This document shows, in pieces, positions 1,103 through 54,475 of a stretch of 64,000 bases of DNA. The notes under the pieces were generated by a model. That model saw nothing but the letters and a program-made list of their open reading frames with translations, was not told the origin of the DNA and searched no databases. Numbering within the stretch: position 1 is the stretch's first letter; each line of letters starts with the position of its first letter. Position numbers and translations under genes: made by a program. Source of the stretch: Octopus sinensis (Eukaryota); NCBI RefSeq assembly GCF_006345805.1, contig NW_021835996.1, positions 62,001 to 126,000 of the forward strand, given 5' to 3'.

Positions 1103-1246
1103 TTTGAATTGCCTGAAGCTTGACTGTTACTAAAAACAGAGCGACGTTGAGCAGCTAAATATAAACAAAGTACAGTCTAACCCCGGCTGGGGCATCAAAG
1201 TGCCCCGAAAGCGGCGGTGCCCTTTCAAACAGGGGCCTGGTTCAAA
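1103..1246. ncRNA. unidentified GC-rich structured element (candidate ncRNA)
   Basis: Terminal pairing 1103-1110/1239-1246, stem 1122-1127/1172-1177, hairpin GGGGCAT-caaa-GTGCCCC 1189-1206 and a further GCCC/GGGC hairpin. No family recognised. Confidence 0.25.
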
Positions 1247-1285
1247 CTATTGAATTATTTGAATAATATTAAAAAAATTCAAAAT

Positions 1286-5273: not shown

Positions 5274-5614
5274 TACGGAAAATACCACAACAAAACTAAG
5301 AGTCAATACGACTATTTAATATGAATTTAATTAAGTATCTAATAATATTACTTGTTATTATTTATTTGATCTGATTATAATGGGATTGATTTTGATTTGA
5401 TTTGAATACACATCAATCTTTTTGATGATACCTTCACATACTTTTGAGAAGGCAAAGTATCACAGTAGAAAGGGGACTTCTACCTCCCTTGATTACATTA
5501 CCAATGAAAAAATCTTCATTATGTAAAACCCTTCCGGAAACAAATGACGTGCGGTAAGCGACGTTAGGACGCTGATAAATTCTCTTGTTTTTCGATGTAA
5601 AAAGTGTTAAAAGA

Positions 5615-6050
5615 TTAATCGATGGGAGGGCTAGCGGCCTGACGGATCGCCAAACTGTTCCTCCGGATAACGGCAATCGAGAACCTTTGGAAAAGCCAGT
5701 CCACCTCCGGCGGATCGTGAGTGCGCATGGAGATTTTGGCTCCGAGCTTAAGGAGGAATTTTTTCGTCTTTGGACCAAGAGCACCCAACGTCTCCACCGC
5801 TATCGGCATCACAAAAAACTCATTTGAAAGAGCGGAATATTTTGTCAGCTTTAAATCTTCAGTTTTTTTAGCAGCAGATTTAACCTCCAGAGCACAAAAA
5901 GTTATATGTGAAGCAGAAAATGTATCCCAGCAGGTTGCGTCCCAAACGAGGCCTTTTCCGCCCTCGAAAGGGAAATGGGTCGTCCCGTCAAGACGTTTCC
6001 CGTCACCGCGCTCAAGACCTGGTGGTTCGAGGACCGAAGGAAAGGAAATT
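5615..6050 (-). mobile_element. CRE retrotransposon 3' fragment (restriction-like endonuclease)
   Basis: LEPPGLERGDGKRLDG...LVWDATCWDTF...PIAVETLG...WLFQRFSIAV, homologous to the C-terminus of the intact ORF. Confidence 0.88.
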
Positions 6051-6239
6051 TCTTGAATTGTATAAGAAATGAACAATTTTCGATCCCGGAGGAAATATTT
6101 GATAGTAGAGTTTTTTTTGTAACAAACAAATATGCAAACATTTATGAGAAGTACTACATGTACCTCAGTGGTCATCTTCTGATATTCCAATAATCATTTC
6201 CAAAAATTTTTAAAAAATTAGAACGCCAATAAGCTTGAA

Positions 6240-13920: not shown

Positions 13921-15501
13921 GCAGCCGGCTTCCTACATGCTAGAGAAGCCGGGGTAACTAACTATGTGGCGAAAGTTTTTGCGGCTCGATGCCACCCGTG
14001 CAAGAAAGTGATAATCCAAAAGAATTTTGTAGTTGCTTTTTAGCACAGTCCACTTCGTTCTTGCCGTACTTTGGGGATTCGGCAAATGAGATGATGTTAA
14101 ATGACGTGTCCATGCTTGTCGCATTTCAAACAAGTGACCGGCTTTCATAATATGGAAATATAGTCATTCAAAAATTAAAGGGAAGCCTGGTAGGCTCGGT
14201 GTACGACATTGTTTACCGACCCGTGTCAGGATAAACGCTTGGCAAGAAAGAAAGTGAAGTTTCTTTACGTCTATCCTGCTCACGAAGGGAAATTTTTGAC
14301 TATGCATTGATTTATTCCGGATCAAAAGACGGCGTTAGCTGGATGAGCGAAGGTTTCATGTTCTTAAAGGCTTCTATAGCTTTAGTTGCTTTGATTTGTC
14401 TATAGGTATCGAAAGGTTTGAATAAGTTTAGGAAACCAACAGGTTTTCACTCAATATGTACCCCGAGAGATTGTTGAATGAGTTAGAATTTTATGGATAA
14501 GATTACGGCTGCTGAAAATCGAGAAAGATGCTTTGGGAGCAAGGTCTTAGTGCAGTGAAGTCAGACCTTTTCATCAATATCGTCAAAGTTCATATTAAAA
14601 ATGGATTCAGTTGACGAGTTCATGAAGAACTTGAGTTTAGAAAGGAAATTGCAATTAGCCAAACAAGCAGAGAGTTTTATCATTGTGTTTAGGCATGTGT
14701 TTTTGAATTGAGTAGTACAAGTCGGTGTTAGTCTGCGGAGTTGTCCATCTTTGGATACAAGGTTAGGTTGAATTATTTCGGATCCGCGAAGACGGTCAAA
14801 AAATGATGCTTCTGGCAATTCGGTAAATTTTACGCCTGGAAATGCCCCCAGGATTAGCTTCAAGCGGCTTGTGAGCCGGGTTCTAGGAATTTGGCATTCC
14901 ATTAATTATTTTTCTATTTCTCTTATGAATCGTTGTTATAGCGAAATTCGATTTATTGATTAATCCAATTAATATTAACCTTCAGTGTTTTTTAGTATTT
15001 TAACAATTTATTTTAGGGAAAAAAAAGTAAAATATTACAGAATTACTACGTAAAACTTTACTTTGTTGCTTAGATCTATGAATTTGTAGTATATTGTGCT
15101 AAAATAAACAATAAATTGGATGTAATAATAAAAAAATAACAAAATTTTAGAAAAAATCTGAAAATTGAGTTGGAATTTTTAAGGAATTTTATTTGAAAAT
15201 CTAAAAAAAACAGCTTTATATAATCGGAAATTTTATTTACATATTGTTTTATCGTATAGTATTTATATTGTTGTTCCGGGACATTCGCGAAATTTAAAAA
15301 ATCTATTTTTAGTTTAATTTTTAACAAGATTGTTTATCACATTTTAGTTCGATATTCTTTTTTGGTTTGTTAGTCCAAAAAAAAACTTTAAGATATAATT
15401 GATTATATTCATTTTTATGGACAATTATTATATTTTAAAATAAATATTATGAATTTTAATACAATAAACTTACAAAATCAAATTTTAATTTTGAATCTGA
15501 A

Positions 15502-17374: not shown

Positions 17375-20300
17375 TCACATATTATTAAAAATCACATCTT
17401 CCACCAAGTTACCTCCAATAAGTTTTAAATCTTCTCCAAACAATGTTATATCGGGCTTAAGCATCACAGAAATGCCATCTGATCCAATAACTGGCTGTCT
17501 ATATTCGACTTGATTGACCTAAAAATATAACAAAAATTAAACCGAGAAAGGTATATCCGTCAAAAAACTTGGCCTGAGCATAACACCAACTTTATAGCCT
17601 CCATATACATCGTAGAAAAAAAGCGCATGTTCTGAAAACCGTTTCTAAGATAAATTTAACAAATTAAAACAGCGAGGCAATCAACATATTTACGTAAAGG
17701 ATCATAATCTAACACTGGAATTGGTAAAATCTGGCGTTTCGAATCTTCGATGGTCTTTGAAGAAATGTGATGAAGAGAATAGACGACTTTTCGTCGTAGT
17801 ATTATTAAAATGTCAAACATTTTATCATTCTGACTGAATATAAACTGCATAGTGAAACGATAAAATAATAACTTTGGATATTTCTCCTGAAGAATTTGAC
17901 AAAATTTCAAAAGCCTTCTTAGAAATTTGCACAAGTCGTGTAACAACGACTTTAGAGGGTCCCTTAAACGTACACATAGAGTTAAATTTATCCATCGGCG
18001 TGGCAATAAACATTGCAGGAAGTTCAGAGCGATTGCTGTTAAACCTATTAATAATTTCATCTCTTTCTTCGTCTAAGTAATAGAGTTGGTTCAAAATAAC
18101 CCGATAAAACAGAATGTGGATCAAATATTAATGGTTTTGAATTCCAGTCAAAGGAACTCACAAATCGTAAAAATCGTATGAAAATAACACGCGGGGACCT
18201 AAAAATACACAAAATTCTCAACATTGGAGTCGTAAAAGGCGCACTCTCTATACATAAATGATTTACGATGATCTCAATGACTATTTCAGGGATATGGACA
18301 ATTAAAAGTAATTGTGCGGCAACCCATCTTTTGACCAGCCTGACTCCACCAGAATAGGAACGACTAGCTTGTTGATGTAAACTAAAATAATAAATTGGAT
18401 TATATACTTTGTAAAAAATGAGTTAATTTGAGGAAAAACGTTATAATCATAATTAAATTCGTTCATTTCTTGCTTATTCTTAAACCGAAGAGATTTCAGC
18501 TCACTATGAGAAGTAAGTTGAAGCCTCCATGGGATAGAACACTGAAAAAATTATAAATATAAATCTAACATGGATGATGTCCACTCTATCAGAATATCCA
18601 ACTGCCTGGATGGATTCGGTTTTTCTCAGCAGCGCAGCTATTCTCAGGTAAAATGAAGCTTTCAAATGTCGAACAGCATCCAAATCATTAGGCCATTTGG
18701 TACTTGACTCAAGTATTCCCAGAACTACAAAACTATAACTAAGACCACTTTCTATCGGCTTTATATAAGACGAAAGAAGAGATGAGCCTTGTTGTGGAAT
18801 GCAGTGGCCGCGCAATACCTTCCCCGTTACTTCATTACTAATTGGATTCACTGGAAAAACCTAAAAAGGTCCAATCAATTAGAAAACCTCAGCATGACGT
18901 AGAGTAGGAGACATGGATTGTATTTTTACAATAGGTAAAGGTAGAAATGAAAATGACAAAAGTAAATTAGACAATTGAGTGAAGTACTTGTTGACTTCAG
19001 CGTACCTTTCGTCCACAGAAAAAGATAGCTCCCTTATTTTAGACTTAAAGTTCTTCCTATTGTATTCGTTAAATCCAAAAAGAATTTGTTGTTCAGTCAG
19101 TTCGATTACATTGATATTTTTTTCAGTTCCTTCAAAATGCCTAAATATAAATAGCAACATTACAAATCAAGAATATATTTGATTATAGATTTTATTATTC
19201 CACGTTTTTCGTCAAAATTTTTTGCCGGCCAAATAACTGATTCGCATACAATTCCATCCGGAAACCTCCTTAAAAGACAGCTGTTGCCCCAAAATTCTCG
19301 GAATGAATTAACCTATAAAGAACATACAAATATGGGATAATTACAAGTTCTTTGTCTTTAGATTCCAATCTATCGACATCTCTATAGCAATGTTTTCCAT
19401 TTAACAAAACTCCAACATTAATAACATCTAGAAAAGCACTTTTTGGCGGAGGCGAGTCAATTGACCACTGAAATAACTCAGGACATATAAACATTTAAAA
19501 CAGAAGAGCAGCACAAGTATAGGAGCGTAATGCGATTATCAAGTGCTCTGCTAAGGACCTTTTCAATATGTTCAATAGACGAATAATAACTACATCGACC
19601 ACAGTCCTCGTATTTATCTGTTGATTGACTATTCTGGAGGCAGTTAGAAATCCTAGCTTATCACAGGTGACATACAAACTGAAATTGGAGGTCAAATTTC
19701 TCGTAGAATCGAATTGGAGTCATAAACAAAAGTTCATAACTGTCATTCTCTCGTTCTAAAATTTTCAAACTCAGTCGTGCTTCGTGAACGAGCTATAAAT
19801 AGATATACGATTATTACCAGTTGATAATGACTAACGGATACGAGACAAAATATTCATAAAACCAGATGGGTCAACAAATACGAGATCAGAATGCTCACGA
19901 AAGTCTTGCAATTTCGGCAAATTTTCATTTCCTTGGTTATAACATAGAGAAATGGGATTCTTTATAAGACAATGTTGATCTGAAAGTTAATTACATTACT
20001 TTCGAACCAAAATAAACGAATATATTTCGTAGAATCTGTATAATATCCATAGAATTAGAAATTATGCCATTTTTGAGAAAATAAGCAAAAAACATGGTAA
20101 AAATAAATCCCGAAAACTGACCAGAATTCTATGAACAGTATAATTAACAAAATAGAAACTGTCTGATCGAGTTCTCGCTGTCTAGCCCAAACTTTCAGTA
20201 AAATAAGTGCGTCGGCAATATTCCCGTTTATCAGATCTGTAAGAAATTCGTTGATCTCCATCATTAGAACATCCGAAAGACATGAGTGATTATAAAATGG

Positions 20301-23217: not shown

Positions 23218-25360
23218 CAGGCCTGGCCAACCCAAATCGCATCGCGGGCCACTTTGTCCAAATGAATCCTTTCCGCGGGCCGCATATACATGTACATACT
23301 AAGGATAGATATCAAAACAACACAGATAAGATTTTATTTAGTAAAATAGCATTCAGTCCAATTATACGTATCAATGAGAAATCTGTTTTTCTTTATCTTC
23401 ACTTAATTTTTTCAAATCAACTTCACAATTACTAGTTGCACATCTTAATTGGTTTTCTAAGTTTTTATCTGTTAAAGAAGATCTATATCTACTTTTACTA
23501 AACTTTAATTTCGAAAAGAATGATTCACATACGTAAGTAGATCCAAAGGAGCTTACAACTCTTTGTGCAAAAATTCTTAAGTTGGGATATTTTTCTGCAG
23601 TCACATATTTGTTATAAAAGTCAATTTTGGATATAGTAGGATAAACAAGTCTTAGTTCACTGTTGCACTGTAGGTCAATTATTTCCGTCTGCAAAGTATT
23701 TGAAACAATAGAAACGTCAACATGAAATGGAGAAGAAAATGTTTCAAACATTTTCTCATATTTTTTTAGTTCCGAGAATCGACTGTCAAATGCTGCAGCA
23801 AGATTTTTTATTTCATCAGCGTACTTGAAGAAATTTTTACAATGGCTGATTTTAAATTGATTTAGCGTTGGAAAATGTTGATCATTTCCATTTCTTATTT
23901 GACATTCAAACAATGACAATTTCATTCGAAATGCTTTGACTTGATGGCATGCATTAGTAATCAAATTATCCTGTCCTTGTAACTCCTTGTTTAATTGATT
24001 AATTTTTTCGGTTATATCTACCAAAAAGCACAGATCTAGCATCCATTCTTCATCATTTAATTCAGTTAATGTCATTTTCTTATGCATCATAAAACTTTTG
24101 ATTTCTTCTCTCAAGTCGAAAAAACGTTTTAAACATTTTCCGCGACTCAGCCATCTGACATTGGAAAAATACACAAGATCACCATAGTGAGAATATAACT
24201 CGTTCAATAATTCTTTAAACTGGCGATGTTGAAGTGCATGAGAACGAATGAAGTTTATAGTTCTTACAACCACACTCATAACATGGTTCATAGACAACAC
24301 TTGCGCGCACAAATTGTGTTGATGTATCAAGCAGTGTATTACAAATAAATCATTTTTTATGCTTCTTGACTCCATCTCATCCATTATTAGCTTTACAACT
24401 CCTTTATTTCTTCCAATCATAGCCGGCGCCCCATCTGTTGTCAATCCAGCAAGGGTCTCTAAATTCGCTCCATTGTCGGATAAACATTTCATAACAGCTT
24501 GGAAAATATCTTCGCCCTTTGTAGTATCTTTCAAACTGACAAGGTTAAGCATTTCTTGTTTCACTTGAAAAGATTCGGTAACTCCACGAATATATACTAC
24601 AAGTTGAGACGTGTCTGATATATCCGTGCATTCGTCAAAGGCCAAAGAATAACTTTTGAAATATTTTATTTGATCACGCAAAGTCACCACAATTTCATTT
24701 GAAATGTCATTAACCCTGCGACATATGGTTTGACGTGACAAGCTAATGTTTGAAAACTTTTTAGTTTTATCTGGCAAAATGTCTTTCACGACAGCATCCA
24801 AACACTCTTTTACGAATTCTCCATCCGAAAATGATTTCATTCTCTTTGAAATTATCATTGCAACAGAGTAGCTTGCTTTAACAGTATCAGAAGAAGAGTG
24901 TATCGATGAATTTAATAGTCTTTGCTGATTTCTCAATTCAGATTTAAGCGAATCCAGTTTCCTTGTTTTCAATTCCTTACTAAATTTCGCGTATTCGGAA
25001 TGCTTTGTTTCATAATGTCTTCTTACATTGTACTCTTTCACCACCGATACTTTCTCCTTGCAAATTAAACATGTTGGCTTGGAATTATGCATTATAAAAA
25101 AGTAATCTTCTTCCCAATGATTGCTGAATTGCCTGTTTTCTTCAAAAATTTTCCTTTTCTTCATATTGATAACAGCTACAAAAATAGATAAACTTTAAAA
25201 TTTATTAAACTTATAAAATTTATCTTTATTTATTAAACTTAAGAAAAATTTATCTTGAATGTATTTATAGGTTAACTACATACAAAATTTCTCTCGCGGG
25301 CCGCACCAAACTCCATCGCGGGCCGCATGCGGCCCGCGGGCCTTGGGTTGGCCAGCCCTG
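23218..25360 (-). mobile_element. complete autonomous hAT (Buster/SPIN-type) DNA transposon
   Basis: 18-bp TIRs CAGG(C/G)CTGGCCAACCCAA with one mismatch, perfect 8-bp TSD CTATAAGA (23210-23217 and 25361-25368) and GCGGGCC subterminal repeats. Confidence 0.97.
23371..25164 (-). CDS. hAT transposase, 597 aa, intact and intronless
   Basis: BED-like CLIC...RRHYETKH, LAFDECTD, TTDGAPAM, HCLIH, VRWLSRG, FGSTYVCESFFS and terminal QISH. Confidence 0.96.
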   Translation of the reverse strand: MKKRKIFEENRQFSNHWEEDYFFIMHNSKPTCLICKEKVSVVKEYNVRRHYETKHSEYAKFSKELKTRKLDSLKSELRNQQRLLNSSIHSSSDTVKASYSVAMIISKRMKSFSDGEFVKECLDAVVKDILPDKTKKFSNISLSRQTICRRVNDISNEIVVTLRDQIKYFKSYSLAFDECTDISDTSQLVVYIRGVTESFQVKQEMLNLVSLKDTTKGEDIFQAVMKCLSDNGANLETLAGLTTDGAPAMIGRNKGVVKLIMDEMESRSIKNDLFVIHCLIHQHNLCAQVLSMNHVMSVVVRTINFIRSHALQHRQFKELLNELYSHYGDLVYFSNVRWLSRGKCLKRFFDLREEIKSFMMHKKMTLTELNDEEWMLDLCFLVDITEKINQLNKELQGQDNLITNACHQVKAFRMKLSLFECQIRNGNDQHFPTLNQFKISHCKNFFKYADEIKNLAAAFDSRFSELKKYEKMFETFSSPFHVDVSIVSNTLQTEIIDLQCNSELRLVYPTISKIDFYNKYVTAEKYPNLRIFAQRVVSSFGSTYVCESFFSKLKFSKSRYRSSLTDKNLENQLRCATSNCEVDLKKLSEDKEKQISH

Positions 25361-25603: not shown

Positions 25604-28600
25604 TTTTTTTAATGTTAATGTATTTTTTTAACAAAAGGAAGAAAATATAGGTTAATTAAGGTTGTTTAAGAGCAGAAAGGATAGCGTGGCTATTACCCCT
25701 GACAACGGTTGTTGAAAGGCGTTGAAACAGCCATTCGGTCTCCCTTCTATCTTTCGTCCGAACCGAGATCAGGGATCCAAGTTTCCTAATGAAAGCGATT
25801 GATTCCGGACCAAAGACTCCGGATGACTCCACAATGATCGGTTGCACTATGAACCTGTCCTTGAGCTCTGAATATTTTAATTTTTTAATTTTTTCGTAGT
25901 TCTGTGAAGCATATCCTGGAGAGGAGGCTGAGGCGATCAGGTTTGTCTCTGAGAAGGTGTCGGTGCAGGCGCAGTCCCAAACAAGGCACTTCCCGTTGGT
26001 GTACGGGAAAATTGTTATCCCATCAGGCCTTTTTCCGTCTGTGCGGATGAGACCAGGAGGCTCCAGCTGTGCCGGGAAACCAGCTGCATGCAAAGCGTTC
26101 TTGACAATTAGGTTCATTGTATGATGTCTTGGAAACCGGCCTGCACTGCGTCTGCATGAGAGAGCATGCCGTCCGAATTCGTCAACGGAAGCCCCGCAAC
26201 TACAGCGGTGCTGGCGGCAGATCTTCATGCAAAGGCGTAAGGAGATTGCAATTCGCAATGTCTCGTCGTCCAGTTTGTTTCCGACTGAAGGGATAGGACA
26301 TGCATTGAGCCACGCTCCGGATTGTTTTTGTGAAGCGCTTCTAAGGCATGCAAGACGAGATTGATCAGAGACCTCTTCCAAGTGGTGGTAAATTGACATA
26401 GAAGACAGGTCGTCCCAACATCTCTGTGAGAATGAGTTAGCAGGTATCTTGAGGCCTTTGTTCGACCAAATTTCGATTGCCATCTGATACCAGGAGGATG
26501 CGTTACGTTCAGTGGAAAGGGGGAGAACAGCATCCACCAGTGAGTCACACGACAATCGAGAAGAGAGGAAAGCGGGTAATGCAATATCTGCTGGGGAGCG
26601 GAGACCAATGCCTCCGAATCGTATTGGAAGCGTGGCTTGGGTCCACGAGGCTTCGTCAAAACGAATGTTGCAGAGATTTTCGGCACTGTGTTTCAGCCCT
26701 GATTCCAGTTCTTTGAGAAGTTCAGGGTTTATAAAGCAGGGGGCAGAGCGGAGAACGTGTTGTAGCTTGGGGAGTGATATGAAGTTTTTCAACAAGAAAA
26801 ACCCTTCGTGAGCGTCCAGGATGGATAGCCTGCTTGACATAAACTCAAAAGTGGATAATTTTCCGGACAGTATTTTCTCGATTCCTTCCGGGAAAATGGG
26901 AGATCCTAAGACTTCAAGCGACCCTTTCCTGGTTATAATGCCACCCGGTAAGACTGCGTGATATTTTTCCACTATAGTCGCGAAATCTTCCTCGTTGGCG
27001 TTGAGGTTTATAATCTCACATTTTGAAGGGTTCAACTGTAATCCAATTTTCTTCAGACTTACAGCGATTGATTCGATATCCAAGATGACTTGGTGAGCAG
27101 GACCACCAATAGTAATGTCATCCAGATACCAAACGTTGAGCGGTGATTTTACGGCGTGTGCTGTTGGGTTAACACCCATGGAGAAGAGTAATGGACCAAG
27201 GGGGTCACCTTGTTGGACCCCAGAGGAGGACAAGATCGTGTGTCCGTCTATCATTAGTTCAGGTGTGCAACCGTAGCACATGCTGGCCATCGGGAGTAAT
27301 GGAATGTTATGTTTGCTGCATTCTTTAAGGAAGCATGAGCGGTCGATGCAATTAAAAGCATTTTTCATGTCCAATTTAGCAAGAATACAGTCGTTATAAG
27401 CAGAGTGTGAAAACTCTGTAAAATCCCTCACGGCGTGGACAGTGGCTTCGCAGCCACTTTTAACACCGACACCCATCTGTATGTTATGGAAAATTTTCGG
27501 AATCAGATGTAAAGACCTGGCGCAAGCGATCTTAGCCGCCAGTCTCCTGAAAACATTACCGACGGATATGGGACGGATTCCACCGTCCTTTTTATTCAGC
27601 GCGGTCAGGTTACCGGAGAGAAAAAGTGAGCGTGGGAAATCAGACAGAGACCCTTCGAGGAATGCGTTCATTAGACCACAAATATCCGTCAAAAGACGTT
27701 CTCCGGCTGCGGAAGCTGAAGAGGAGACCAGATCCATGATATGACTTGGACGGAGGCCATCGATTCCGCCGCTGCTACTAGGGCGAAACGACTTCAGGGC
27801 TCTCAACACTTCGTCTTTATCGACATGCACAAAGTCATGATCCGGGCTTGGTGTTGGTACTGTTGTAGGAGAAGATGGGGTGGGATGTTTTGCTAGGAGG
27901 GACTGTATTGTTTGTTCGTCAACCCTCGCAACTTTATCGTCTGAGGAAATTATTCTCAAGGCGGCCGAGAAGTCGCCTGACATTAACTTGGAACGTACTC
28001 TCTTGCGTAGGTTTTCGTTGTGGTTTAGTCTTGGTTTTGACAGTGAGTGGCTTTCCTGAGATATTAATGTGTCGATGGAAAAGGGGAGGTAAGAAGAAAT
28101 AGATCTTTTAAGTTTGGAAGTAAAATTCCCAGGCAATTTATCTCCACGGGTCAGGCCAAGTCCGAAAAAGTGGAAGCAGAACGCTTTTGCCCAATCCTCG
28201 TCCCTGTTTGAGGTCATAGCTCTGGATATCAGAAGAGACAAGGCCTCCGCAGCTGCTGGACGAGCTGGTTTCGGTAAACGGATAGGGATGCTTCTCGAAT
28301 GACGATATCTTGATAGATAAGATAGTATTGCGTTCGATGAAGTTAGTATATTGGGAGATTGATCATGGGAACTATCAAACAATGTGGGTGTGTCGTGGAA
28401 TGAGGCAGCTGCCAGGCAAGAGTTACAGTGCCATATTGGGATGCTGGAAGCGGATTTCTTCGAAATCTTGAGACATCCAATATGGAAGTAAGCATGGCAG
28501 TTGGCGCAGTAAATGCCGTTTTTGCGGCAGTTAATTTTACTGCATTTACCACATGGTAATGGATCGTGGAAAAGAAATGACATGTAAAAATAGGAAAGAA

Positions 28601-28705: not shown

Positions 28706-28929
28706 ATTTTGTATTTATAATAAAAATAGATTTAAATTTTAATATTGAAACAAATTTAAAGCATGTCCGGAATTAGGCTAGTGACATTAAAATTGTTATA
28801 AAATTTGAACCGTAAAATTATGCTAATAATTTGAACCGTAAAATTACCTTTTTACTCTCGATTTGTAAAATGAAAATTTTTCGTTTTTTTTCGTTAGTAT
28901 TTAGAGTTTGATCTTAATAAACAAATATT

Positions 28930-30146
28930 TTTAGATATAATACTCTCGATTCGTTTATGAAAGGGAAAATAATTGCGTTATACGACTTAAATATGTCCTA
29001 TATTAAAATTTCTAAAGAAACCGGTGTTTCATATTCAATAGTCGTGAATTTTGTCAAAAAGTACAATAAAACTGTATCATATGACCGCCAACATGGTTCT
29101 GGAAGACCATCAATTTGAATAATGTACAAATTAATCATTTGGAACTCACATCAGAAGAAAATTCATCTTTAACTGCTTCTGAACTTTCTAATGAAATAGA
29201 AAAGTTTTTTGATACACATGTCTCGTTTCGAACTATAATACGTAATTTAAATAAAAATGGAATTTTCAGAAGAATTGCAAAGAAAAAACCACTTCTAACA
29301 AAAAAACACATGGTTTCCAGATTCAACAAATTTCTTCAAATTTTAGACCATGATTTTAGATCAATAATCTTTTCTGATGAATGTATTTTTGAATTATTAC
29401 CGACCCAAAAAAATTGTGTATAGAAAAAAATTTGAAATGAATAAATCGGAAAATATTACTCCAACTGTCAAATTTGGAAAAGGTAAATTGTGATGTAATA
29501 AAAAATTAGGAAAAGTCATGGTGTGGGGTTGTTTGTCCTATCATGGAGTAGGCGATTTGGTATTTATAGACAAGACGCTTAATTCTGCAAAATATCAATC
29601 TATTTTGACCAATAATTTACCACATTCTGCACAAAAAATGAGGATTGTTGACTATATTTTTCAACATGACAACGCTCCCAGCCATACATCAAAAATATTT
29701 TTACGAAAAACATATTAAAAATTAGAATGGCCTTCGCAATCTCTGGATTTAAATCCAATAGAGCATTTGTGGGCTTATATGAAGGTTCAAATTAGGCAAA
29801 GAAAAAATGAGAACTTTTAGCACTGAAGGAAAATATAATAAATATTTAGTATTCTATTCCAACAAAAACACTTGAAAAATTAGTTGGGTCAATGAAAAAA
29901 AGATGTTGGGAGATCTATTCGACAAAAGGAGGTTATTTTACATATTAATTTGACAATAACCAAATTTTATGTCAATGAAAGTCGTTGTTTTTTCCAAATT
30001 TCTTAGACAAAATTTCAAAATTTAAATAATTAAACTAATTATTCTCAATTTTATCAGATTTTAAAATATATTGGAAGAAAAAATTAAATCATTCTTTGTA
30101 TAAATTAAGTAAGTTGAAGATTCACCAATATTTATTTCGAGGGGTG
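28930..30146 (+). mobile_element. degenerate Tc1-family transposon with a 27-nt intron
   Basis: KGKIIALY...[46 protein letters not shown]. Right end ...GAGGGGTG followed by TA. Left TIR not found. Confidence 0.88.
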
Positions 30147-31339: not shown

Positions 31340-31600
31340 AAGGCACTAGCCAATCCAATGTAGACCCGCCGCAGTGTTCTTACTTCGGGAGATCGCTGCC
31401 AGAATCTCCGCTTCGGAAATATTGCCTGCATCGTTCCTTGATATGCCCAGCTGGCAGCGCTTGTCCCACGACAATATCTGCTGGACAGTATCAAAGGACG
31501 ATGTCTCCACGAACTGATTTCCGTCAGTTCCAGAGATGTCATTGAGGTAGGTCGAAAATATTTCAGTCAGTCAGTTAACAGAACATTCAGTACTAATTTT
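31340..31600 (-). mobile_element. LINE RT N-terminal remnant
   Basis: ISEAEILAAISRSKNTAAG...I, the pre-RT motif. Confidence 0.5.
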
Positions 31601-31639
31601 CCACACTGAAGTTCGGTGGCTGTCAAGAGGAAGGGTGCT

Positions 31640-32606
31640 TAAATGGGTTGCCGAACTAATTGGTGCACTCACTAATTTTTTACAAGAAATAAATAATATA
31701 GAACTCGCCAATATGTTCGCAGATTATGCCTTCAAACAAAAGTTATTCTATCTTGCTGATGTATGGAATAATAAACGAATTAAATTTATCCATACAAGGT
31801 AAATCTTTCTTTTTTATCCTGAAGGTAAATGCATAGAAGCTTTTGAAAAAGTATCTGCATTTAAGCAAAAGTTGAATTTATGGAGGAAAAAATTAACTTT
31901 TTCCGATGTTGGAGGAATTAATTGGAAATAATAAACCTGAAAAATGAATTATTTTACAAATCGACGAACACCTAAAAAATTTGCAAATTAAATTCGAAGA
32001 ATATTTTAATTGCGATCAGATTGTTCCCCGATTGTATTTTGTGTAAGATTGATGAGGCTCAGGAACTTCCTTTTCTACAAGAATTAATTGATTTAAAAAG
32101 CTCTACGACTGCAAGGGTTACTTTTAAAATTTTTGTGATTATTCAGATATGTTTCAATTCTTGCACACTTATGGAATTTTGGAGTAAAATGATTCCAAAG
32201 TATTCGTTTTGACTATGGCTAGTATGCAATATTTAATTCATTATCCAACAACTATGCGAAACTGCGACGTCTTGTTTATCATTTATTAAAAATAAATCTC
32301 TTAATCGATTGAAAGTTGGAGATGATATGCTAATCGCTCTTAGCAACGTGGATTCGAATATTACAAAACTTGTTGCAGAAAAACAACAGCAAATATCTCA
32401 CTAGAATTAAATCTTTTACACTTTTTCTGCATAAAATATTTTATTGATTTTGTTTAGTTAAAAAATAATTTATCTTTTATAATTAAATCATTTATCTCAA
32501 AAAAAGATATGTAAAAATTTAAAAATCGATAGGGGGTACGCGGGATCCATTTTTAACTCCAAGGGGTACAATTTATTAAAAAATTGAAAAAGGTTAAGAA
32601 CCTCTG
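31640..32606 (+). mobile_element. degenerate hAT (Buster/ZBED5-like) 3' half with two tiny introns
   Basis: YLAD...NELNLSIQG, AFKQKLNLW, ELIDL...FW, NRLKVGDDMLIALS...KQQQISH*. Right TIR ...AAGGTTAAGAACCTCTG with GGGGTAC subterminal repeats. Confidence 0.85.
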
Positions 32607-34103: not shown

Positions 34104-35078
34104 ATGGTGATTGCTGGTGTTAATATTCATATAGGGTGTAAGAGGTATTAAAAGACATCTGAAACGAGTAAATGCTCCAAAGAAATGGATGCTGAGCAAG
34201 ATGGGCGGTGTCTTTGTATGACTGAATGTCTACTAATGTATAAATAGGCACCAAAGCCCACATCAGGTCCCCACAAGCAACGTGAATGTATCCCAATGGC
34301 TCTGGTCCTTCGAGAATATTTCAAATTTGCTTTGAATTACCAAGAAACCAAAAAAATCGCTAAACGTAGAGTAGTGAAAATCGACAACAAAATTCGAACT
34401 GACCACCGATATCCGATTGGTCTGATGGGTGGGTATTCTTTAGTTTATTCTTAGATGTGATCTCTTTCGGAAAACTAAACAAGCACTACAGAATGCTTTA
34501 TGACGCCAAAGGACGATTTAAACCCACTCCTATTGGAGAAACTGAGGCCGAGGTTAAATCTATAGAGTTGTATTTGATAGGTCAAACTGTGTAAAGTTCG
34601 AAGAACCATAATCGGTCCTCAGAAGATTCCTTATCTATACACCTATGATGGAAGGACTATCAGATTCCCCAACCCTGCAGTAAAGGCTAATGACACGATA
34701 ATGCTCCATTTGGCTACGGGAGAGATTAAAGACTTTATAAGCATGGACAAGGGTTTGTTTCGTATGATTATTTGTAAGGCAACTTGTGTATTATTACTGG
34801 AGGGCGTAATTTGGGGCGAGTAGGGGTGGTCAATAAGATTGAGAAACACCCTGGTGTGTATGATATTGTTTATGTTGAGGATTCCTCACATAACAAGTTT
34901 TGTACTCGGTAAGAATTGTCGGTTTTATATAAGAATGCAAAATGTGTTTATTATTGGGAGGGGGAATTCTCCGTGGATCACGCTAAGTATTGATAATGGT
35001 GTCAGACTTACTACAATGGCTGATCGTGAGAGGAGACTCAAAATGTCTGCAAAAGCAAAGGGAATAGAATTGGCCTAA
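34104..35078 (+). CDS. RPS4: 40S ribosomal protein S4 (eS4), 7 exons
   Basis: Introns 34107-34134, 34216-34247, 34429-34454, 34553-34580, 34753-34778 and 34909-34933 (28, 32, 26, 28, 26 and 25 nt) give [21 protein letters not shown]...GPHK...KLCKV...DGRTIR...GGRNLGRVG...EKHPG. Confidence 0.97.
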
Positions 35079-36393: not shown

Positions 36394-37073
36394 TTTATTA
36401 CTATTTCATGTTTTTGGGAATGTATAATCTAACCCCATTAATCTATCGAAACAATTTGAATACAATTAAATACAATAGTGAAAAATGCGACAAATCGGAC
36501 CAAAAGTGCAAAAACTTATCAATTCAAGAAGATAATAAATAATCAAAAAAACAAGAACACTCTCAGACAGAGTGAAAGGAATTATAACTGAAGACATCAA
36601 AGAATTAATCAGTTTTGAACGTTTCCTCCCCGCACATCCTTCAGAGAGCTACGATAAAAATAAAAGATTTTTAACGGGGCGATCAACTTTTATTTACACA
36701 AACAAGGCAATTTACGACGTGGCCACGTAGAATTCATTAACAGTGCACTCGAAAACATTAAAGTACGGATTCTCTTTAAAATTCATAGAAATTTGGAATG
36801 AAGCAAGATTTAGATTTATATATTAGAATATTGGAGGTTTTTCCTAAAGGGAAGATGATTGCAGAGACAGCTTTTCAGAGGGAACTAGTCCATTACCCTA
36901 AAAAGCAGCACTGCTGTGGAAACAATCTATCACATGGAAAAGAACGGTAGATGAACGAGTTTTGACTTTTAAGGAGTTGTTCCCAATGTATTCGGGCTCA
37001 AATCTTTTGCAATGAAGAGATATTTGAGGGCGATGTACTGGATGCCAAAGTTTAAAGGAATAAACCCCAACTA

Positions 37074-38534
37074 CACCCCTCGTCACCGAAAACCGGACAA
37101 GCCATTTTTTATGATTTTATTAATTAAATACGAAAAATCAAAAACTTAAGCTTAATATTTTTACTTAATAATAATAATTGTGTATTAATTATTAATTATG
37201 CTATTATAGAACTAATATTTAACGCAGAATTTCAATTTAGCTAAGACATGTAAAACCGGACAAAACTTTTATAGATCTAAAAGTCGTTGAAAAGAAGCTA
37301 AAAATGTATAGTCAAAGAAGAAGTCACCTTTCAGATTTCCTGAAAGGACAAATTATTGCATTTTATAATCATAATATGACTTATCGAATGATTTCTACAA
37401 GTATAGGAGTCCCAAAATCAACTGTATCAAATGTGATTCAGAAATTCAAAAAAACTGGATCAATTAACAGACATCCGGAAACTGAAAGAATAAAATATTG
37501 TAAGAGGAAGAAATTTTGATTTTAGTAAAACTATCAAATAATACCCCTTATAAAAGTGCCAAAACTCTTAGCATCGAAATTAAAAATATGTTCAAAAAAA
37601 ATTTCAACAAGAATAGTATCTCGAATTTTAAATAAGAAAGGATTATATGGCCGAGCTGCTAAAAGAAAACCTCTTTTATCCACAAAAAATATAATTTTAA
37701 GACGTGAAATTACGAAATCATTTTAAAGCATTTCCGACGAGACATAGAAGTCGGTAATTTTTACCGATGAATGGTCTTTTGATATTTTTAATATCAATGA
37801 GCATCAAATAGTGTATAGAAAAAATGGTTCTGCATACAAAAAATGCAATATTGTCCCAACTGTAAAATTCGGTGGTGGAAAAGTAATGGTTTGGGGCAGT
37901 TTCCGTATAACCGAGTCGGTAATCTTGTTTTTATTGATGGAATCTTGAATAGCGCGAAATATATTAATATTTTATCCAATAATATATTCGAATGTATCAA
38001 AAAATTTAGAATAGACTCATTTATCTTACAACATGATAATGCACCTTGCCATAAATCTAAAATATACAAGATTATATTAAAGAAAAAAACATTATTTTAC
38101 TTCAATGGCCGGCTCAATCACCGGATCTAAACCCGATAGAACATCTATGGGCAGAAATGAAGAGAGAATCATCAAAAAATGTAGCCAAAAACAAAAATGA
38201 ACTAAAGGACAAATTAGCAGAAATATGGAATACTATATCACTAGAATTATTGAAAAAACTAGTAATGTCTATGAAAAATAGGTGTTATAAAATTTTCAGT
38301 GCAAATGGTGGAAATATTAACTACTAAATGACTTGTTTTTATTTTTGTCCGGTTTTACATGTCTTAGCTAAATTGAAATTCTGCGTTAAATATTAGTTCT
38401 ATAATAGTATAATTAATAATTAATACACAATTATTATTATTAAGTAAAAATATTAAGCGTAAGTTTTTGATTTTTCGTATTTAATTAATAAAATCATCAA
38501 AAATAGCTTGTCCGGTTTTCAGTGACGAGGGGTG
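37074..38534 (+). mobile_element. full-length but inactivated Tc1 element with ~192-bp IR/DR-type TIRs
   Basis: TIRs 37074-37265 and 38343-38534 are nearly identical, with TA flanks and AAAACCGGACAA at both ends of each TIR. Frameshifted transposase with IFTDE, LQHDNAPCH and [11 protein letters not shown]. Confidence 0.95.
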
Positions 38535-38641
38535 TATGTTCTCCCTCTTCGTAAAGAACACGTCAAATCAGATCACTTCCAGCTCACTTTGGCCAGACTC
38601 GCTCTAAAAAGAATGTCGTTTGATATCGAGGCAGTTATTTC

Positions 38642-39949
38642 GGTACTGTTGCATTTCATACTGCACGAAAATTGCCTCTAAGTGAATTAATGAAAATTTT
38701 TATGAATATTAGATCGAAAACTTAAAAAATTAAACTATGCCGAATTTGACATTTTATTCTAATTTTTTTTAAAAAAATTTGAATTTTTACCGGCTTAGTG
38801 GTGTCAAAACAATACCGACAAAATTAAATCTGAGCTATTAACGACCACCTGTCTAAAAAGACACAGTTGTTGGTTAATAAAGATGCTTATCATCATTCCC
38901 TCAGTGACAAAATCTTTATTACAATAAAAAAGGTCAGCTGGTAGTACGAAGCGTGATATTCGGCGGACAAAATTTGACGATGGCATCTATTAGCTCATCG
39001 AAGGAGTTGTCTAAATGGCTCACTTGCCTTCTCCATAATGCACCCATGAAGTGACGCGGGGTCCCCCTTTGTCTCTTATGCACATAAGCAAGAGCATTGA
39101 GATCTGGCGTTGAATAACCTATTAGCAAGAATAAAGTAGAATTACCCTTCCATTTGTCAGTGTGTATCACTGATCCCGGTGCGATATTTTCCTGTATTGC
39201 GGCGGTTAGAGTTCTTTTGGAACGATCTGGAACCATCTTGATGAAACAGTCTTTACTTCCACGACAGATTCCCCCAAAAACCCATTGTTGAGGGAGAATC
39301 CGTCCTGCATTGTTTTTCCGTTTAGAAAACATGCATTCGTCAACTTGGACAACTTTGCCAATACCACCTAACAATCTAATGGAACACTCATACCAATAAT
39401 AATATGCGCAAACCTCTCGCAGGGAGTGAGACCAATTACGAATTGTATGGCTGCTCCATTCCAGTTGACGCCGACACCATAAAATACTGTGTCTGTCGAA
39501 ACTCCACATGTACATAAAGCGAATACATGACTGTAAGGTCACTTTCGTGCCTTCGAGCCACGTACCTAAAAATAAAGTACTCTCTTATACCGTTTCTAAT
39601 AGAACTATATGTTCGACACCCACTTTTATGGCACACCCATGTTGTATTCTCCTGCTGTTGGAGAAGGGTCATAAAATGTCTGTTTTGACATTTTTTTTCT
39701 TTGTGAAAGATTCCAACCTCTTGAAAGAAGGCAACTGACTCCATTTCAGTACGGGGAAGCTCATAGTCCTTCAGTTTTGCAAATTTTCGCATGACAACTG
39801 TATCATTCATCTCCACAAGCCGGTAAAAAATTCAATTTTTTTTAAAAAAAAATTAGAATAAAATTTACAAATTCGGCATAGTTTAATTTTTTAAATTTTC
39901 GATCTAATATTCATAAAAATTTTCATTAATTCATTTAGAGGCTATTTTC
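38642..39949 (-). mobile_element. Merlin (IS1595/ISXO2-like) DNA transposon, defective, with two tiny introns
   Basis: LGGIGKVVQVDE...KRKNNAGR...QWVFGG...VPDRSKRTL...IAPGSVIHTDKWKG, ~130-bp inverted repeats and 8-bp TSD GTTATTTC (38634-38641 and 39950-39957). Confidence 0.93.
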
Positions 39950-40962
39950 GTTATTTCTTGCAACAAACTAAGAAGTCAACCAAATTCTTTGTTCATAGTC
40001 TCCTCACAAAGTCCACTGCAGAAAGAACTAATAGAAAAGGCTCCAGCTTGTGCCCAGTTCTGTATTTCTGGGCCGTTCAAAAGTTTTTTGAGAAAACATG
40101 CTTACCTATTACGTGTTGGGGTATAGGACTGATGCAACTGGTAGAGTGGAGAATTCGGACGAAAATTTGTTCAATTTTTACTATGAAAGTGAAGAAAATA
40201 GGAAAAAACTAAAACCTATAAAACAATACATGAACAAGATGATGAAACAATCCTGGCACTGTGTATTTTGGTAAATGAATTGGATTTTGGATCCACTCTC
40301 AGTGGGTGGCTGATCTATTCACGAGAGGAAAATCCAAGTTTAGTTTCCAGAAAAGTGAATATACGTCTGTCGGAATAAAACTAATCTTCCATTGTTGCAT
40401 CAATAATTTTCAAACAGAGATTTACAATTTTTTTAATAACAACAACTTTTGTACATAGTCTTGAAATGTTATAAAATCGAGGATAAATTCTTAAAAGAAA
40501 ATGTTTTTTAAGTAAGAGGCGTGTTAAAGGACAATTAATAATTATTCATGAAAAAATTGTTTTAATCAAATTCAGATCTTTGGGACAAAATGAAGAATCT
40601 TTTTAATAAGGGTATAAAGGTCTGATATTGAAAAATTCTACTGAATGTCGTGTTTTTAACACCACAAAGCGTGTCACACAGGAAAATCAAATTTTTTTCG
40701 ATAGATACGAATTCTTTGTATAACACAGGAAACATGGGACCTCGATAAAAAATTTAATGCCTGAGTATTCCAAAGACCCATATGATTCATAAGTGTGAGG
40801 AATAGTTATTTTCTTTTAAAATAATCTTGCTAAGACTAGAAAATGAACATCAAACTGTGATACTTAATAAAATATTTTTTGCATTAATAATTAGATCGAA
40901 AAGAGTTATTGCCAGAATATATAAAAATAATGTAAAATAAAACTATCCAGGTTAATATATAA

Positions 40963-47177: not shown

Positions 47178-50078
47178 CTAAATCGTTTTAGTCTGATTAA
47201 GGCACTCTTGGACAATCCCCAACAAGTATAAAACTTGCTTTTCTTCTAAGAATTTATTGTATTCCAGCTTCATCCTAGCTTCAATCTCCTCTTTACTAAG
47301 AACAACCAAAGGGGCCATCTACATTATTCAAGTCTTATAAAATTCACCCCGGCCTGTTTTTTATTTTCCTAGTGCTCTTTTTGCTTTCGTCCTCCTTGAT
47401 GTCGTATCTTCTTTTTACAAAGATTCGTCTTTTTATTTCTCGGTCAATTTAAGTTTTAAATTGATTCAACTATTCTTAACAACAAAACAAAACCTCGTTT
47501 GAGTGTGGAATACATAGACAGGTAGGAATCTTGATTATATGCAAAGTGGCCTGTTCATCCCCAACTGCCATCAAATGCTGTTTTTCTGGAAAAATTACAT
47601 AAAATGAGAACTATTAGCAGTCGTGATGTTTATCGATGTTATGTTAGACAGTGATATACTCTGCGAAGCAGTGGGCTCGTGAGACTTGTCCAAAAATAAA
47701 ATAAAATACGGCGAGCCTAGAAGGCGACCATTCGGCTGATGTGAGTCGTCTGGTAAACTTTTTGCTCTTTATAAGAGGTCCCAACTGCGGTTAGAAATAT
47801 CAGATACATGAAAGTTTTCCTTCCAAAGAGAAAAGTTCCAGCCTCCGACACACAGAAGCAAGTCTCTCAAAATGGAGGTCTGACTAAGGCAGTGACCGGA
47901 CCGTAGTGCTCGTGTGCCGTGAATTCGGGTTTCGGAGCTATACTTTTACTCAACAAATTATCACTTTCAAATTTTATTGACTCGAAATTCTTTTCTGGAA
48001 TCCAATTCAAATAAATAAGTTCCTCGTCCTACCAGATTAGGACAACTTGTAAAACATCTGCTCCAACATAAAACATGGTACCAATTGAGTTCAAAGCTAT
48101 TTTGTCTGATGTGTATAATTTTTGCGAACATTCCTGCACGGTTAATGGGGGATTCTGGGGTTTTCTGTGATTTTCTACAAAGTCTTCAAAGATCATAAAC
48201 ACCCATATTCGTGTATTCGTGGATCGAGAACTTGACTGGGTAGTAGAATCTCCCATTCTCCCTGTGATGGGTCGTTACCTCAATTTACTTAATTATCATT
48301 CGATACTTTAAGAAAAGGCTTCCATATCAAATTGAGATAGTCGAAAGTATTCGTTCTGGGAGGAGAATCCACCTTCTTCTGCTCCCATTGATGTAGTCGA
48401 TAGTTACGAATGTCGAATAAGAATAATGTGCTAATCTAAGTCATAATATCCCCACCTATCAAGTCCACATGACATTATTTGTGATGAAAAATTCATTGAT
48501 TTTTCCATTAGTTTGCCATTTTTGCAAATCTGGAAATTATACTTTACAAAACATTACTTCAAAATGACTTAGAATCCAAATCATGTCCGTGACCGCACAC
48601 GTATGGGACGAGCCAATGGCTGTGGAAGAAACGGAGTCAAAAAAGCTGAATCATTGTCATACCCGGACTTAAATATTTTTAAAATTTTTACGAATACGTC
48701 AAAAGGGTTTTTGAGTGGCTGCCTGTGGTTGTAAATGAGAATATTCTGAAATGTCCCATATGACGATTGTTCTGTTCACACACCCAGCGGCCACATAATT
48801 AAGATTTGAAGGGTTAAAATCAAAGACTGTCACGTCGTTGGGTGCTTCAACTATCAACTGAGAAATGTCTCAATCACGTTTACTTGAGGATTTATTGGGT
48901 CAGAAAACACCAAAACAAAATAAGGGATTTTTCTACCAAAAGTTCGTGTTTATTGTTTATTTTGTAGTCGAAAGTGTTTCCGTGAATCAAAGAAACCGCG
49001 ATGACGTCTGAAATGCTGAAGTGAACATAACCTGAGTAAAGCGGGTGCCATCGAATGCAACTGACAATTTTTGCTCTCGTGGATTTGAGGTCAGAAAATG
49101 ATTGATACTCCTAAATGAATTATTATAGGAGAAAGACTCGCAGATGGATATCCAGCTTGTCGTCAAAACTGGATGATTTCTTTTTCTGAGATCTTGATTT
49201 CTCGGAATTCATATTCTGTAGCTTTGTTGAAGGGATATTTCCACTTTACTTGACTTGTTCCCTCCAACTTTGTGTTGATTGTCTGCCTTTTTAAAACATC
49301 AATTCATAAACATCAGTTCCTCTATGTAAAAGAGGGATTTTTATAGCAAAAATCATCGCATTTTGAGGACTTTATATTAATCAGCCCGTCCCTCGTCTTT
49401 TCAACATCTCTGTCTTGGAATTGCCGATTCTTGTTGAGCAGTTTATTTGAACAAGAAATTAAGACTGTTATCTAAAATACACCTCATTGATGGCAACTGG
49501 CTTTGAATATTGTCTTATGTTTTCTTCCTCAATCTTTTTCTCACTTCCGTATGAAAGCCATCTTGTAGATACTGGAGGAATGTACACCAAAGGAATTTCT
49601 TCTGAACTCTCCTCAAAAAGTAAATTTTTAGTCTGGCACCTTAATCAATTAGACCAACCTTATCCGTGAGTGTGTTTGCTACCTCGAGAGTGGCTGCCAT
49701 ATAAAAGTTATTTCCATATTTAAAGTTAAAGTCATAGCAAATGAGGATTTTATCCTCCGGATAATTAACAATGACGTCTTTAAAAGGTTTAAAGTCGGAG
49801 ACCGCAGCTCGGTTACAAATGTCTTTCATAATTTCCTCTTTTTTAATTCTTTTTATCCAGTTTGTTGATGTAACGTCTTCTTCGACACGTAGATTGAATA
49901 TGGCCTGAGTACTTGATGTCAGTAATAGCGAAATGATTCCATCGGGGACTGAATTGTAAATTTTTCTTACTTTGTCTTGATGTTCTTGGTTTTTTACGTT
50001 TAATGTGAATGAATTTTTTTCGACTCTTAAATAAATTGGTTATTTTAAACTAACAGATTTTTTGCTTGCAAAAGACAT
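47178..50078 (-). CDS. DNAI3: dynein axonemal intermediate chain 3 (WDR63/IC140)
   Basis: STQAIFNLRVEEDVT, DICNRAAVSDFKP, YDFNFKYGNNFY, VGGWNFSLWKE, DKSHEPTASQSI, TLHIIKIP. At least one homopolymer frameshift (~47870). Confidence 0.9.
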
Positions 50079-52624: not shown

Positions 52625-53115
52625 GGGCTTGCTCAATAAAAAGAGCCCAATGTGGCTATCCACACAACGTAATTTTTCAGAGAGAAGGGAAAATTCCGAA
52701 ATTTTAGCCTTCATAACAACTTTGATGCTACTTTCAAAAATAGGAGATCCAAGAAAAATCAAGTCTTCTTAGAGGGGGAAGATGGATCCAGGTAGCAGTT
52801 TGTCGAATTCGGTCATCTACTTACGAAAGGAAAGTTCGTCCGCGTTGACATTCACAATTTCGCATTTGCCGCAGTTGAATTCAAGCCCAAGCGCTCCAAA
52901 ATTAAACACAAGAGACTTCAGCGTTTCCAAGATGCCTTCGGGGGTTTCTCCAATTACTCCATCATCCAAATACCACATGTTAAGATCAGTTTTACACGAT
53001 CTCGTTGTTTGGTGGGTTGCGAGGGAGAATAAGAGAGGACCTAGAGGGTCACCTTGTTGAACTCCATTGGGAGAATCAAGTATGGTTGTCCCGAATATAA
53101 GCGCGGAAGGCTTGA
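52625..53115 (-). mobile_element. CRE retrotransposon RT-core fragment
   Basis: GVQQGDPLGPLLFSL...NMWYLDDG...KCEIVN...FLGSPIF. Confidence 0.88.
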
Positions 53116-53545
53116 AGTATTGAATAACTTTAAATGAATGTCTTTATTTTGTTTAAAATGGACAAATATTTTATAAATGGAGTATTTTTATACAAGTACT
53201 CATTCAGGATTGTTGTAAACAGAGTCGACTTAAATCAATTAGTTTAATAGATAAAGAATATTTGAATAATGAATGGTTTTTAAGATTGGCTTGTCTACGA
53301 ATTGTTGCTTAAACTGTAAATTGTATTTTTCGGATTTAAAAAAGCATCTAATCAGTCAAAACATGGTCCAACGATTATATTTTCAGATTATGTTTAGTCG
53401 TGATTCCTAACTCATTGATTTGCAATTGTGGTCCACCAAAAACTAGAAATAAAATAGCCCGCCCGACCCTATATGAGAGGGAGACGTCCGGTGGCAAGAA
53501 TACTGTTTTTATCAAGGAACAGATTCACGACCCGAGAAAACTATG

Positions 53546-53870
53546 TTAAATCTGCTTATATATCGCGAGCGAAATGCGCTGAAAAAACCAGCTAGACTCA
53601 CGTCTCTTATGACTCTTCCTCGAGATCATCAAACCAATCTCCAAAAGGAACTCCAGGGCTTTTGGGCCGATTATCCCACTCGTCTCGAAAGCCAGGGGGA
53701 CGAAAAGGCAGGTGTTCTCCAATGAGGCGTACTTTGCGATTTTTTTCTTTTCGGGATGTGCGGAGGCTGAGCCAGGGCGGGAGGCAAAATCGATGAGAGA
53801 TGACGAGGAAAACGAGTCGACACAGGTGACGTCCCAAACGAGAGCGAGTCCCCCCTCCATGGCCTTTTGT
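53546..53870 (-). mobile_element. CRE retrotransposon 3' RLE fragment
   Basis: LVWDVTCVDSFS...EKKKIAKY...FVPLAFETSGIIGP...WFFQRISLAI. Confidence 0.88.
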
Positions 53871-54475
53871 TGCGGTTGTAGACATCGGCACTTTGTGAAC
53901 GACGACACGGTCAGGAATGGATATCCCAATACGACATCAAGTGAAAGATTACATCTAAAGATTGTGTAAGCTTTATTTCTGGAATACAGGGAAATATTGG
54001 CGACAGACTAAATATGGTTAACATAAAATTTTAAACAAAGAATTTTTTGGTGTTAATCCCATTTAGTTTGCTATTAATCCCATATTGTTTGGTATTCCTT
54101 TATGTACACACTAATGTCGATTCCAATCTTAGAGTGCAGTTGTCCCGGGATTGACTTACATTTAATTTATTGTTCATTTTAGCACAATATACTACAAATT
54201 CATAGATCTAAACAACAAAGAAAGGTTTACGTAGTGATTCTGCCTCGATCTGAATTTTTGTAATATTTTACTTTTTTTTCCTTAAAATAAATAGTCAACC
54301 CCGGGATAACTATCAACATACTGGTGGCAGACAAAAAGACCAGTGCAATTGAACATTTAAAAACAGAACTGGAGGATCTCCATATTAAATCGAAAATGAC
54401 GACTAAAAAAACGTTTACAAATTTATTGGAACTGGTGGCGCTCTTTATGGAGGACAGTCACCAAAACTTGACGAG

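Follow-up and report, generated by a model that had tools for sequence, protein, structure and literature searches.

A perfect 9-bp direct repeat at the borders of a candidate 26-nt intron in a dead hAT transposase gene and its putative origin by duplication at AG/GT

Where new introns come from is still an open question. Seven routes of intron gain are listed in the available part of a review of the subject (PMC3443670); one is tandem duplication at AGGT, and another is break repair accompanied by direct repeats. In the same part, tandem genomic duplication at AGGT is credited with 188 listed events and with in vivo support, most gained introns are said to have no identified source, and it is cautioned that repeats at intron borders need comparison with those of conserved introns (PMC3443670). 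In Drosophila, the excerpted text of one study reports no excess of border repeats (PMC3296678).

Ultra-short introns of the kind described below are reported, among animals, from myxobolids and dicyemids only, according to the accessible sections of a recent account (PMC13644364). Partial texts on dicyemids give a median intron of 27 nt for Dicyema sp. (PMC6543705) and 36.7% GC with 49% repeats for D. japonicum (PMC6736024). Intron gain and transposon introns are not treated in those sections of the dicyemid and myxobolid account (PMC13644364), and we found no report of either in dicyemids in the open-licence literature. The excerpt of a preprint describes introns as rare in class II transposons (bioRxiv 10.1101/656579).

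The window analyzed here, by which we mean the whole stretch of DNA (64,000 nt), is ~35% GC and eukaryotic, with host genes (RPS4, seryl-tRNA synthetase, NOL6/Nrap, kinase, BEACH-WD40, EF-hand, and ER, from Pfam) lying among many transposons. Host introns are predictions from our own gene finder, without transcript support; as the gene finder over-predicts across the whole window, introns were taken from seven genes only, and 4 of the 71 predicted there were removed as doubtful before counting. The remaining 67 host introns measure 23-43 nt, with a median of 27 and a mode of 26. In this median, the reduced splice signals, a GC content near 35%, and its richness in repeats, the window resembles the dicyemids and myxobolids as portrayed in the available parts of the literature (PMC13644364, PMC6543705, PMC6736024). 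A gene for an axonemal dynein intermediate chain, DNAI3/WDR63, is located at ~47476-50050 on the minus strand (E value of 2e-23 against solved chains) and suggests an animal with cilia over a myxozoan. To our knowledge, myxozoans have no cilia. Intron size, GC, and the axonemal dynein gene together suggest that the host genome is dicyemid-like.

The locus of interest falls within a hAT transposase gene on the plus strand, in its C-terminal third (31578-32404), recognized by homology with a frameshift-aware alignment and carrying a transposase motif. We take this fragment to be of the Buster type, and the label HTEVRW for its motif is likewise our assumption. Its best homologues are ~45-65% identical (about 45-50% over the first 100 residues). 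The fragment is 5′-truncated. In the frameshift-aware alignment, which included four homologues, either of the two with the highest scores reveals five further frameshifts in it, along with one stop and several small deletions; judged from its sequence, the copy is dead. A 3′ terminal inverted repeat at 32592-32606 on the minus strand is followed by an 8-mer with a central TA. The left terminal repeat was not found in the window, where the one other match has 3 mismatches and is within chance, nor was any sister copy of the fragment found there. The gene also holds a second, clean intron of 30 nt (32117-32146, plus strand, phase 0, in frame), overlooked by the earlier sequence-only reading of this DNA. 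Its removal leaves a spacing of 23, the value found in 8 of the 10 homologues that have both anchors (24 in the other 2), and no border repeat was found at it.

Upstream of this second intron, the perfect direct repeat AAGGTAAAT occurs at 31796-31804 and 31822-31830, with a period of 26, and cannot be extended. It had been claimed that this repeat supplies both the GT and the AG of a 26-nt intron, and that description stands: both copies are located on the plus strand and frame a candidate GT..AG intron (31799-31824, 26 nt, plus strand, phase 1 within a Gly codon) with which they are in register. The first copy spans the end of a Gln codon, the first base of Gly, and then the candidate donor, while the second contains the candidate acceptor and the start of the downstream exon. 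The duplicated stretch contains AG/GT and provides both splice sites, its period of 26 equals the length of the candidate intron, and its 9 nt lie above the border repeat of at least 5 bp expected of break repair.

As a putative splice substrate, 31799-31824 is ordinary. It has GT-AG ends, host-like length and composition (26 nt being the host mode), and an interior that is rich in T and includes a 12-nt run free of A. Host introns that score no higher than the candidate number 29/67 for the donor, 13/67 for the acceptor, 59/67 for the interior, and 27/67 in total; among 174 exonic decoys, 1.7% attain an equally high total. The donor hexamer is shared with 3/67 host introns and with the Tc1 intron described below, and the acceptor is weak, with its GAAG ending found in 1/67 host introns and AAG in 8/67. 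Alternative acceptors for this donor at 31836 and 31839 were rejected, as the resulting segments of 38 and 41 nt cost even more coding sequence.

As an intron border, the repeat is unusually long. In-register border overlap is 9 nt at the hAT site and averages 0.97 in the 67 host introns, with a maximum of 7, and none of 4422 cross-paired host borders, whose mean is the same as that of the true ones, overlaps by 9. The analytic probability of an overlap of at least 9 is 1.7e-4, rising to 3.3e-3 given G/GT at both ends and to 7.1e-3 given AG/GT at both ends. By these figures the repeat is longer than chance would give at an intron border. Overlaps of at least 5 nt occur in 1/6 transposon introns versus 1/67 host introns, a comparison in which the hAT case was picked for its repeat. 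The longest host overlap belongs to an intron of NOL6/Nrap (18861-18887, minus strand), which has a 7-nt in-register border repeat at AG/GT and is a candidate for a second case of duplication origin.

As a free-standing repeat, AAGGTAAAT is less special than as an intron border, and the site was chosen post hoc. Across the whole window, 31 perfect repeats of at least 9 nt with 20-40 nt spacing were observed versus 13.1 expected (150 shuffles), and local repeats of at least 13 nt numbered 6 versus 0.14 expected in shuffles, an excess showing that short local duplications are common in the window. Local repeats containing AGGT/ACCT numbered 3 versus 0.14 expected, and a single array at 59722-59793 accounts for two of the three. 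This array is a tandem repeat with periods of 21 and 27, perfect over up to 24 nt and with AGGTAAG on the plus strand; its perfect 24-nt AGGT-containing repeat (period 27, at 59743) is, in our gene model, an in-frame duplication in a minus-strand exon. Short duplications resembling the array lie at 13385, 25200, 28802, and 56654.

Removal of the candidate intron does not restore the length of the protein family. Of 156 homologues examined, 130 could be anchored and 48 have both anchors, a conserved Gln and a conserved Trp; the Gln-to-Trp spacing is 23 residues in 47 of these 48 and 25 in the other. After removal of 31799-31824 the spacing is 20, with a genomic excess of 17 nt, so that a separate loss of 9 nt is needed to explain the 3-codon deficit, and the earlier description of a "clean intron" is not borne out by homology. 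The deficit may stem from a later deletion or from a gain that was itself imprecise. A single removal of 17 nt (31800-31816) restores 23 residues and gives a profile score of 42.5, versus 42.4 for splicing plus a free 3-residue gap. This removal puts Pro at +2, where 13/107 homologues have it, and requires Gly-Lys at +4/+5, which is found in 0/107. Gly-Lys would also fall at +4/+5 if the second copy of AAGGTAAAT were ordinary coding sequence; it is common right after the conserved Gln, and Lys is at +2 in 18/107 homologues. As to an intron shared by homologues at this site, 7/113 of them are proteins that stop soon after the conserved Gln, with differing tails, which, as judged from protein records only, carries no weight either way.

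The interior of the candidate intron matches its flanks in part. A 7-nt word of the upstream exon (31785-31791, plus strand) recurs in the intron at 31813-31819, with a period of 28 and thus two bases off register, a match missed by the sequence-only reading. In all, 16 of the 26 nt match the flanks: 6 nt match the downstream exon, and on the upstream side 3 match in register and 7 two bases off. A duplication-template score of 11 was obtained at the hAT site, compared with a maximum of 9 in the 67 host introns, and 7 of 2500 cross pairs reach 11. The same score is reached by 22% of 4000 interior shuffles, indicating that it comes mostly from the 9-mer, and by 2/67 host introns set in the hAT flanks. 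A match as good as the 7-nt one arises in 0.6% of 20000 interior shuffles, and 4/67 host introns give a 7-nt near-register match. The evidence in the interior for copying beyond AAGGTAAAT is suggestive only.

Other DNA transposons in the window carry introns of similar size. Tc1-like copy 1 has a 27-nt intron (29483-29509, plus strand, phase 1 in Gly) that leaves an in-frame stop if retained, and comparison of the sequences supports it well, as its removal yields a protein colinear with the intron-less Tc1-like copy 2 of the window, which aligns gap-free to Sleeping Beauty at the intron site of copy 1. Copy 2 (37072-38536, plus strand) has 194-nt arms that are 97% complementary and lacks an intron at this site. 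It had been claimed that the Tc1 intron is similarly bracketed by GGAAAAG; this does not hold, as one copy lies at 29476 and the other at 29509, a spacing of 33 nt for a 27-nt intron, and the in-register overlap is 3 nt. Being out of register and equal to a Gly-Lys-Gly-Lys codon repeat, this bracket was ruled out as a duplication scar. A 5′ intron candidate in copy 1 (~28893-28934) was excluded, having no homology support; it is not at G/G, so counting it would weaken the G/G pattern described below.

A Merlin-like element on the minus strand (38665-39951), which is frameshifted and has lost 32 residues at the C terminus, contains three introns of 25 nt (39566-39590), 26 nt (39368-39393), and 27 nt (39119-39145, in frame without a stop), all on the minus strand and all in phase 1 in Gly at G/GT. 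The sequence-only reading had counted two introns and placed them at G/GT; the placement holds for all three, while their border overlaps of 4, 3, and 3 nt rule them out as further examples of long repeats. Each intron breaks a motif that is unbroken in the homologues (the motifs were matched in 6, 17, and 16 of 17), and excision restores it. The continuous protein records suggest that the Merlin homologues are intron-less in their DNA.

Taken together, six tiny introns are found in three DNA-transposon superfamilies, and five of them, the hAT candidate included, lie inside a Gly codon at G/G. With the hAT candidate left out, phase-1 Gly accounts for 4/5 transposon introns versus 4/67 host introns (Fisher P 0.0003) and G/G for 4/5 versus 10/67 (P 0.004), statistics that are post hoc and small, with three of the five introns coming from one Merlin element. 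Border overlap stays below 5 nt in all five transposon introns other than the hAT candidate. No sequence family was found in the window among the six introns, whose best pair reaches 7, versus a 99th percentile of 10 for host introns. Elsewhere in the window the interior of the hAT candidate has only low-complexity 10-11-mer matches, and an introner family was rejected within the window. Two other DNA transposons in the window have no introns.

The association of new introns with transposons is shared with introners, as far as the available text describes them (PMC9860276); unlike introners, the six introns form no sequence family, and the transposons here receive introns rather than form them. 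In the preprint excerpt cited above, the transposase gene of the bivalve Tc1-like element TLEWI has similarly acquired GT-AG introns; TLEWI is, however, mostly without terminal repeats and maybe domesticated, whereas we find introns of 25-30 nt in three superfamilies with terminal repeats (bioRxiv 10.1101/656579).

We propose, at about an even chance, that 31799-31824 is a putative spliceosomal intron that arose by duplication, or by re-copying during break repair, at AG/GT and was later damaged in a dead copy. The Gln-Gly codons and their immediate surroundings, a short stretch containing AG/GT, would have been duplicated or re-copied in break repair, with the upstream AG/GT becoming the donor and the downstream AG/GT the acceptor. 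Under duplication, the 5′ part of the intron is predicted to be a copy of the downstream exon and its 3′ part a copy of the end of the upstream exon. The gain may have taken place while the hAT family was active, with the segment spliced, and the middle of the intron may have drifted T-rich later; the dead copy probably went on to lose another 9 exonic bases. A duplication-born intron is supported by the long in-register overlap, the template score, and the 7-nt match, by the host-like score, the modal length, the presence of a second, clean intron in the same element, and the many small deletions in the copy, and further by the Gly-Lys counts in homologues, the enrichment of local duplications in the window, and the Gly G/G position shared with 4/5 other transposon introns. 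It is opposed by the weak acceptor, the need for a second event, the small contribution of the interior once the borders are fixed, and the 17-nt removal that does equally well on the profile. In addition, the 9-mer AAGGTAAAT is also the context of the Tc1 donor and can thus arise without duplication.

The site behaves like a described tandem-duplication gain in that a duplicated AG/GT gives both donor and acceptor, the period equals the intron length, and the ends resemble the flanking exons (PMC3443670, available part). It differs in that its match to the flanks is partial, its coding length is 3 codons short, it is ~26 nt long, and its host gene is a dead transposase. With gains by double-strand break repair (DSBR) it has in common that each border carries a copy of a short direct repeat, with non-matching filler between the two. 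It differs in that part of the filler is local and no foreign source for it was found in the window, and in that one of six transposon introns versus one of 67 host introns with an overlap of at least 5 nt is too few for enrichment. The mechanism is already described, and as the site fails the test of precision, it is not classed as a proven member of the tandem-duplication gains. Duplication remains the best single account of the repeat at the hAT site, although the family length is not restored, the copy is dead, and the other five introns have overlaps below 5 nt. That such events are a "simple engine" of intron gain, as had been suggested, is not established from one site.

The main competing explanation, which we consider possible but rather doubtful, is that the segment is a repair scar in a dead transposon, left by one deletion with a templated insertion (net +17 nt, by synthesis-dependent microhomology-mediated end joining, SD-MMEJ) and never spliced in a working gene. 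The two share the duplication and differ in its timing and in splicing. A scar would obtain its GT..AG ends for free since the copied stretch contained AGGT, and a single event would cover the repeat together with the 7-nt match, and the 3-codon deficit as well. The death of the copy and the enrichment of local duplications in the window, including the 24-nt AGGT repeat at 59743, favor it as well, and insertions with direct repeats of nearby flank and loss of bases are a described signature of SD-MMEJ and polymerase theta, as given in the portion of the source at hand (PMC7407515). However, SD-MMEJ scars need no splicing and predict neither the modal intron length nor an intron-like interior. 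The segment has exactly the host mode of 26 nt, its interior is intron-like rather than exon-like, few exonic decoys score as high overall, and it belongs to the phase-1 Gly, G/G class seen in 4/5 other transposon introns.

It is quite unlikely that an ordinary intron was gained in some other way at a G/G proto-splice site and that the repeat is coincidental. The recurrence of the donor hexamer and of the AAG ending in host introns would fit, as would the 7-nt overlap of the NOL6 intron, but a chance overlap of at least 9 nt has a probability of 0.003-0.007 even given G/GT or AG/GT at both ends. In one version of this explanation, the true acceptor was deleted and the present "acceptor" is exonic; the 17-nt removal does yield the family length, with the Pro at +2 known from 13/107 homologues, whereas the Gly-Lys that it needs at +4/+5 is found in none of the 107.

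In introners, short target duplications can supply splice sites, and target-site duplications of the ~9-nt size class are made by Mutator and Merlin. A target-site duplication from a small introner-like mobile element or from transposon excision, with 17 nt of filler, is nevertheless very unlikely here; the perfect 9-nt repeat is of fitting size and the genome is rich in DNA transposons, but similarity among the six transposon introns does not exceed that among host introns, and the interior has no match elsewhere in the window beyond low-complexity ones. An assembly or sequencing error that duplicated bases is extremely improbable, as the duplication is imperfect with a unique interior and the neighboring host genes and an intact 597-codon hAT ORF have no frameshifts.

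By itself, the hAT site offers a single, unproven case of a mechanism already known, and does so in a dead element; the transposon introns at Gly G/G sites are the part that deserves genome-wide attention, as a usable record of recent intron gain. If they are what they seem, a genome in which a 25-nt insertion is a full-size intron and in which multi-copy transposons gain introns would offer many present/absent pairs. It is conceivable, though unlikely, that short local duplications in this genome are commonly of 20-30 nt, the size of its introns, and that duplication or templated repair at G/G(T) is a running one-step source of introns. DNA transposons arriving without introns would then record the gain, and the six introns in Buster, Tc1, and Merlin elements would be its products, the 9-nt repeat being the scar that has eroded least, a reading that we put forward tentatively and with more doubt than belief. 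If such a running source exists, copies with and without each intron would expose the mechanism directly.

Several other features of the window were observed. The RPS4 gene (34104-35078, plus strand) has six introns of 25-32 nt, five of which seem, on our assumption, to be at vertebrate positions. A phosphoacetylglucosamine mutase gene (1181-2710, plus strand) has apparent frameshifts and stops and appears to be a pseudogene or to contain sequence errors, and it is followed by a tRNA-like stretch recognized by eye (~2793-2864). An intact ORF of 975 codons (25656-28583, minus strand) combines a PHD finger with a reverse transcriptase and is presumably of the non-LTR, CRE-like kind; decayed relatives lie near 3357-4640, 5400-6200, and 52800-54000. 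Two inverted copies of an AT-rich element, 91-92% identical and ~39 kb apart (15000-15125 and 54156-54298), are possibly a MITE. The intact, intron-less hAT element that holds the 597-codon ORF (23218-25360, minus strand) has terminal repeats, shows a perfect target duplication of 8 bp, and is probably young.
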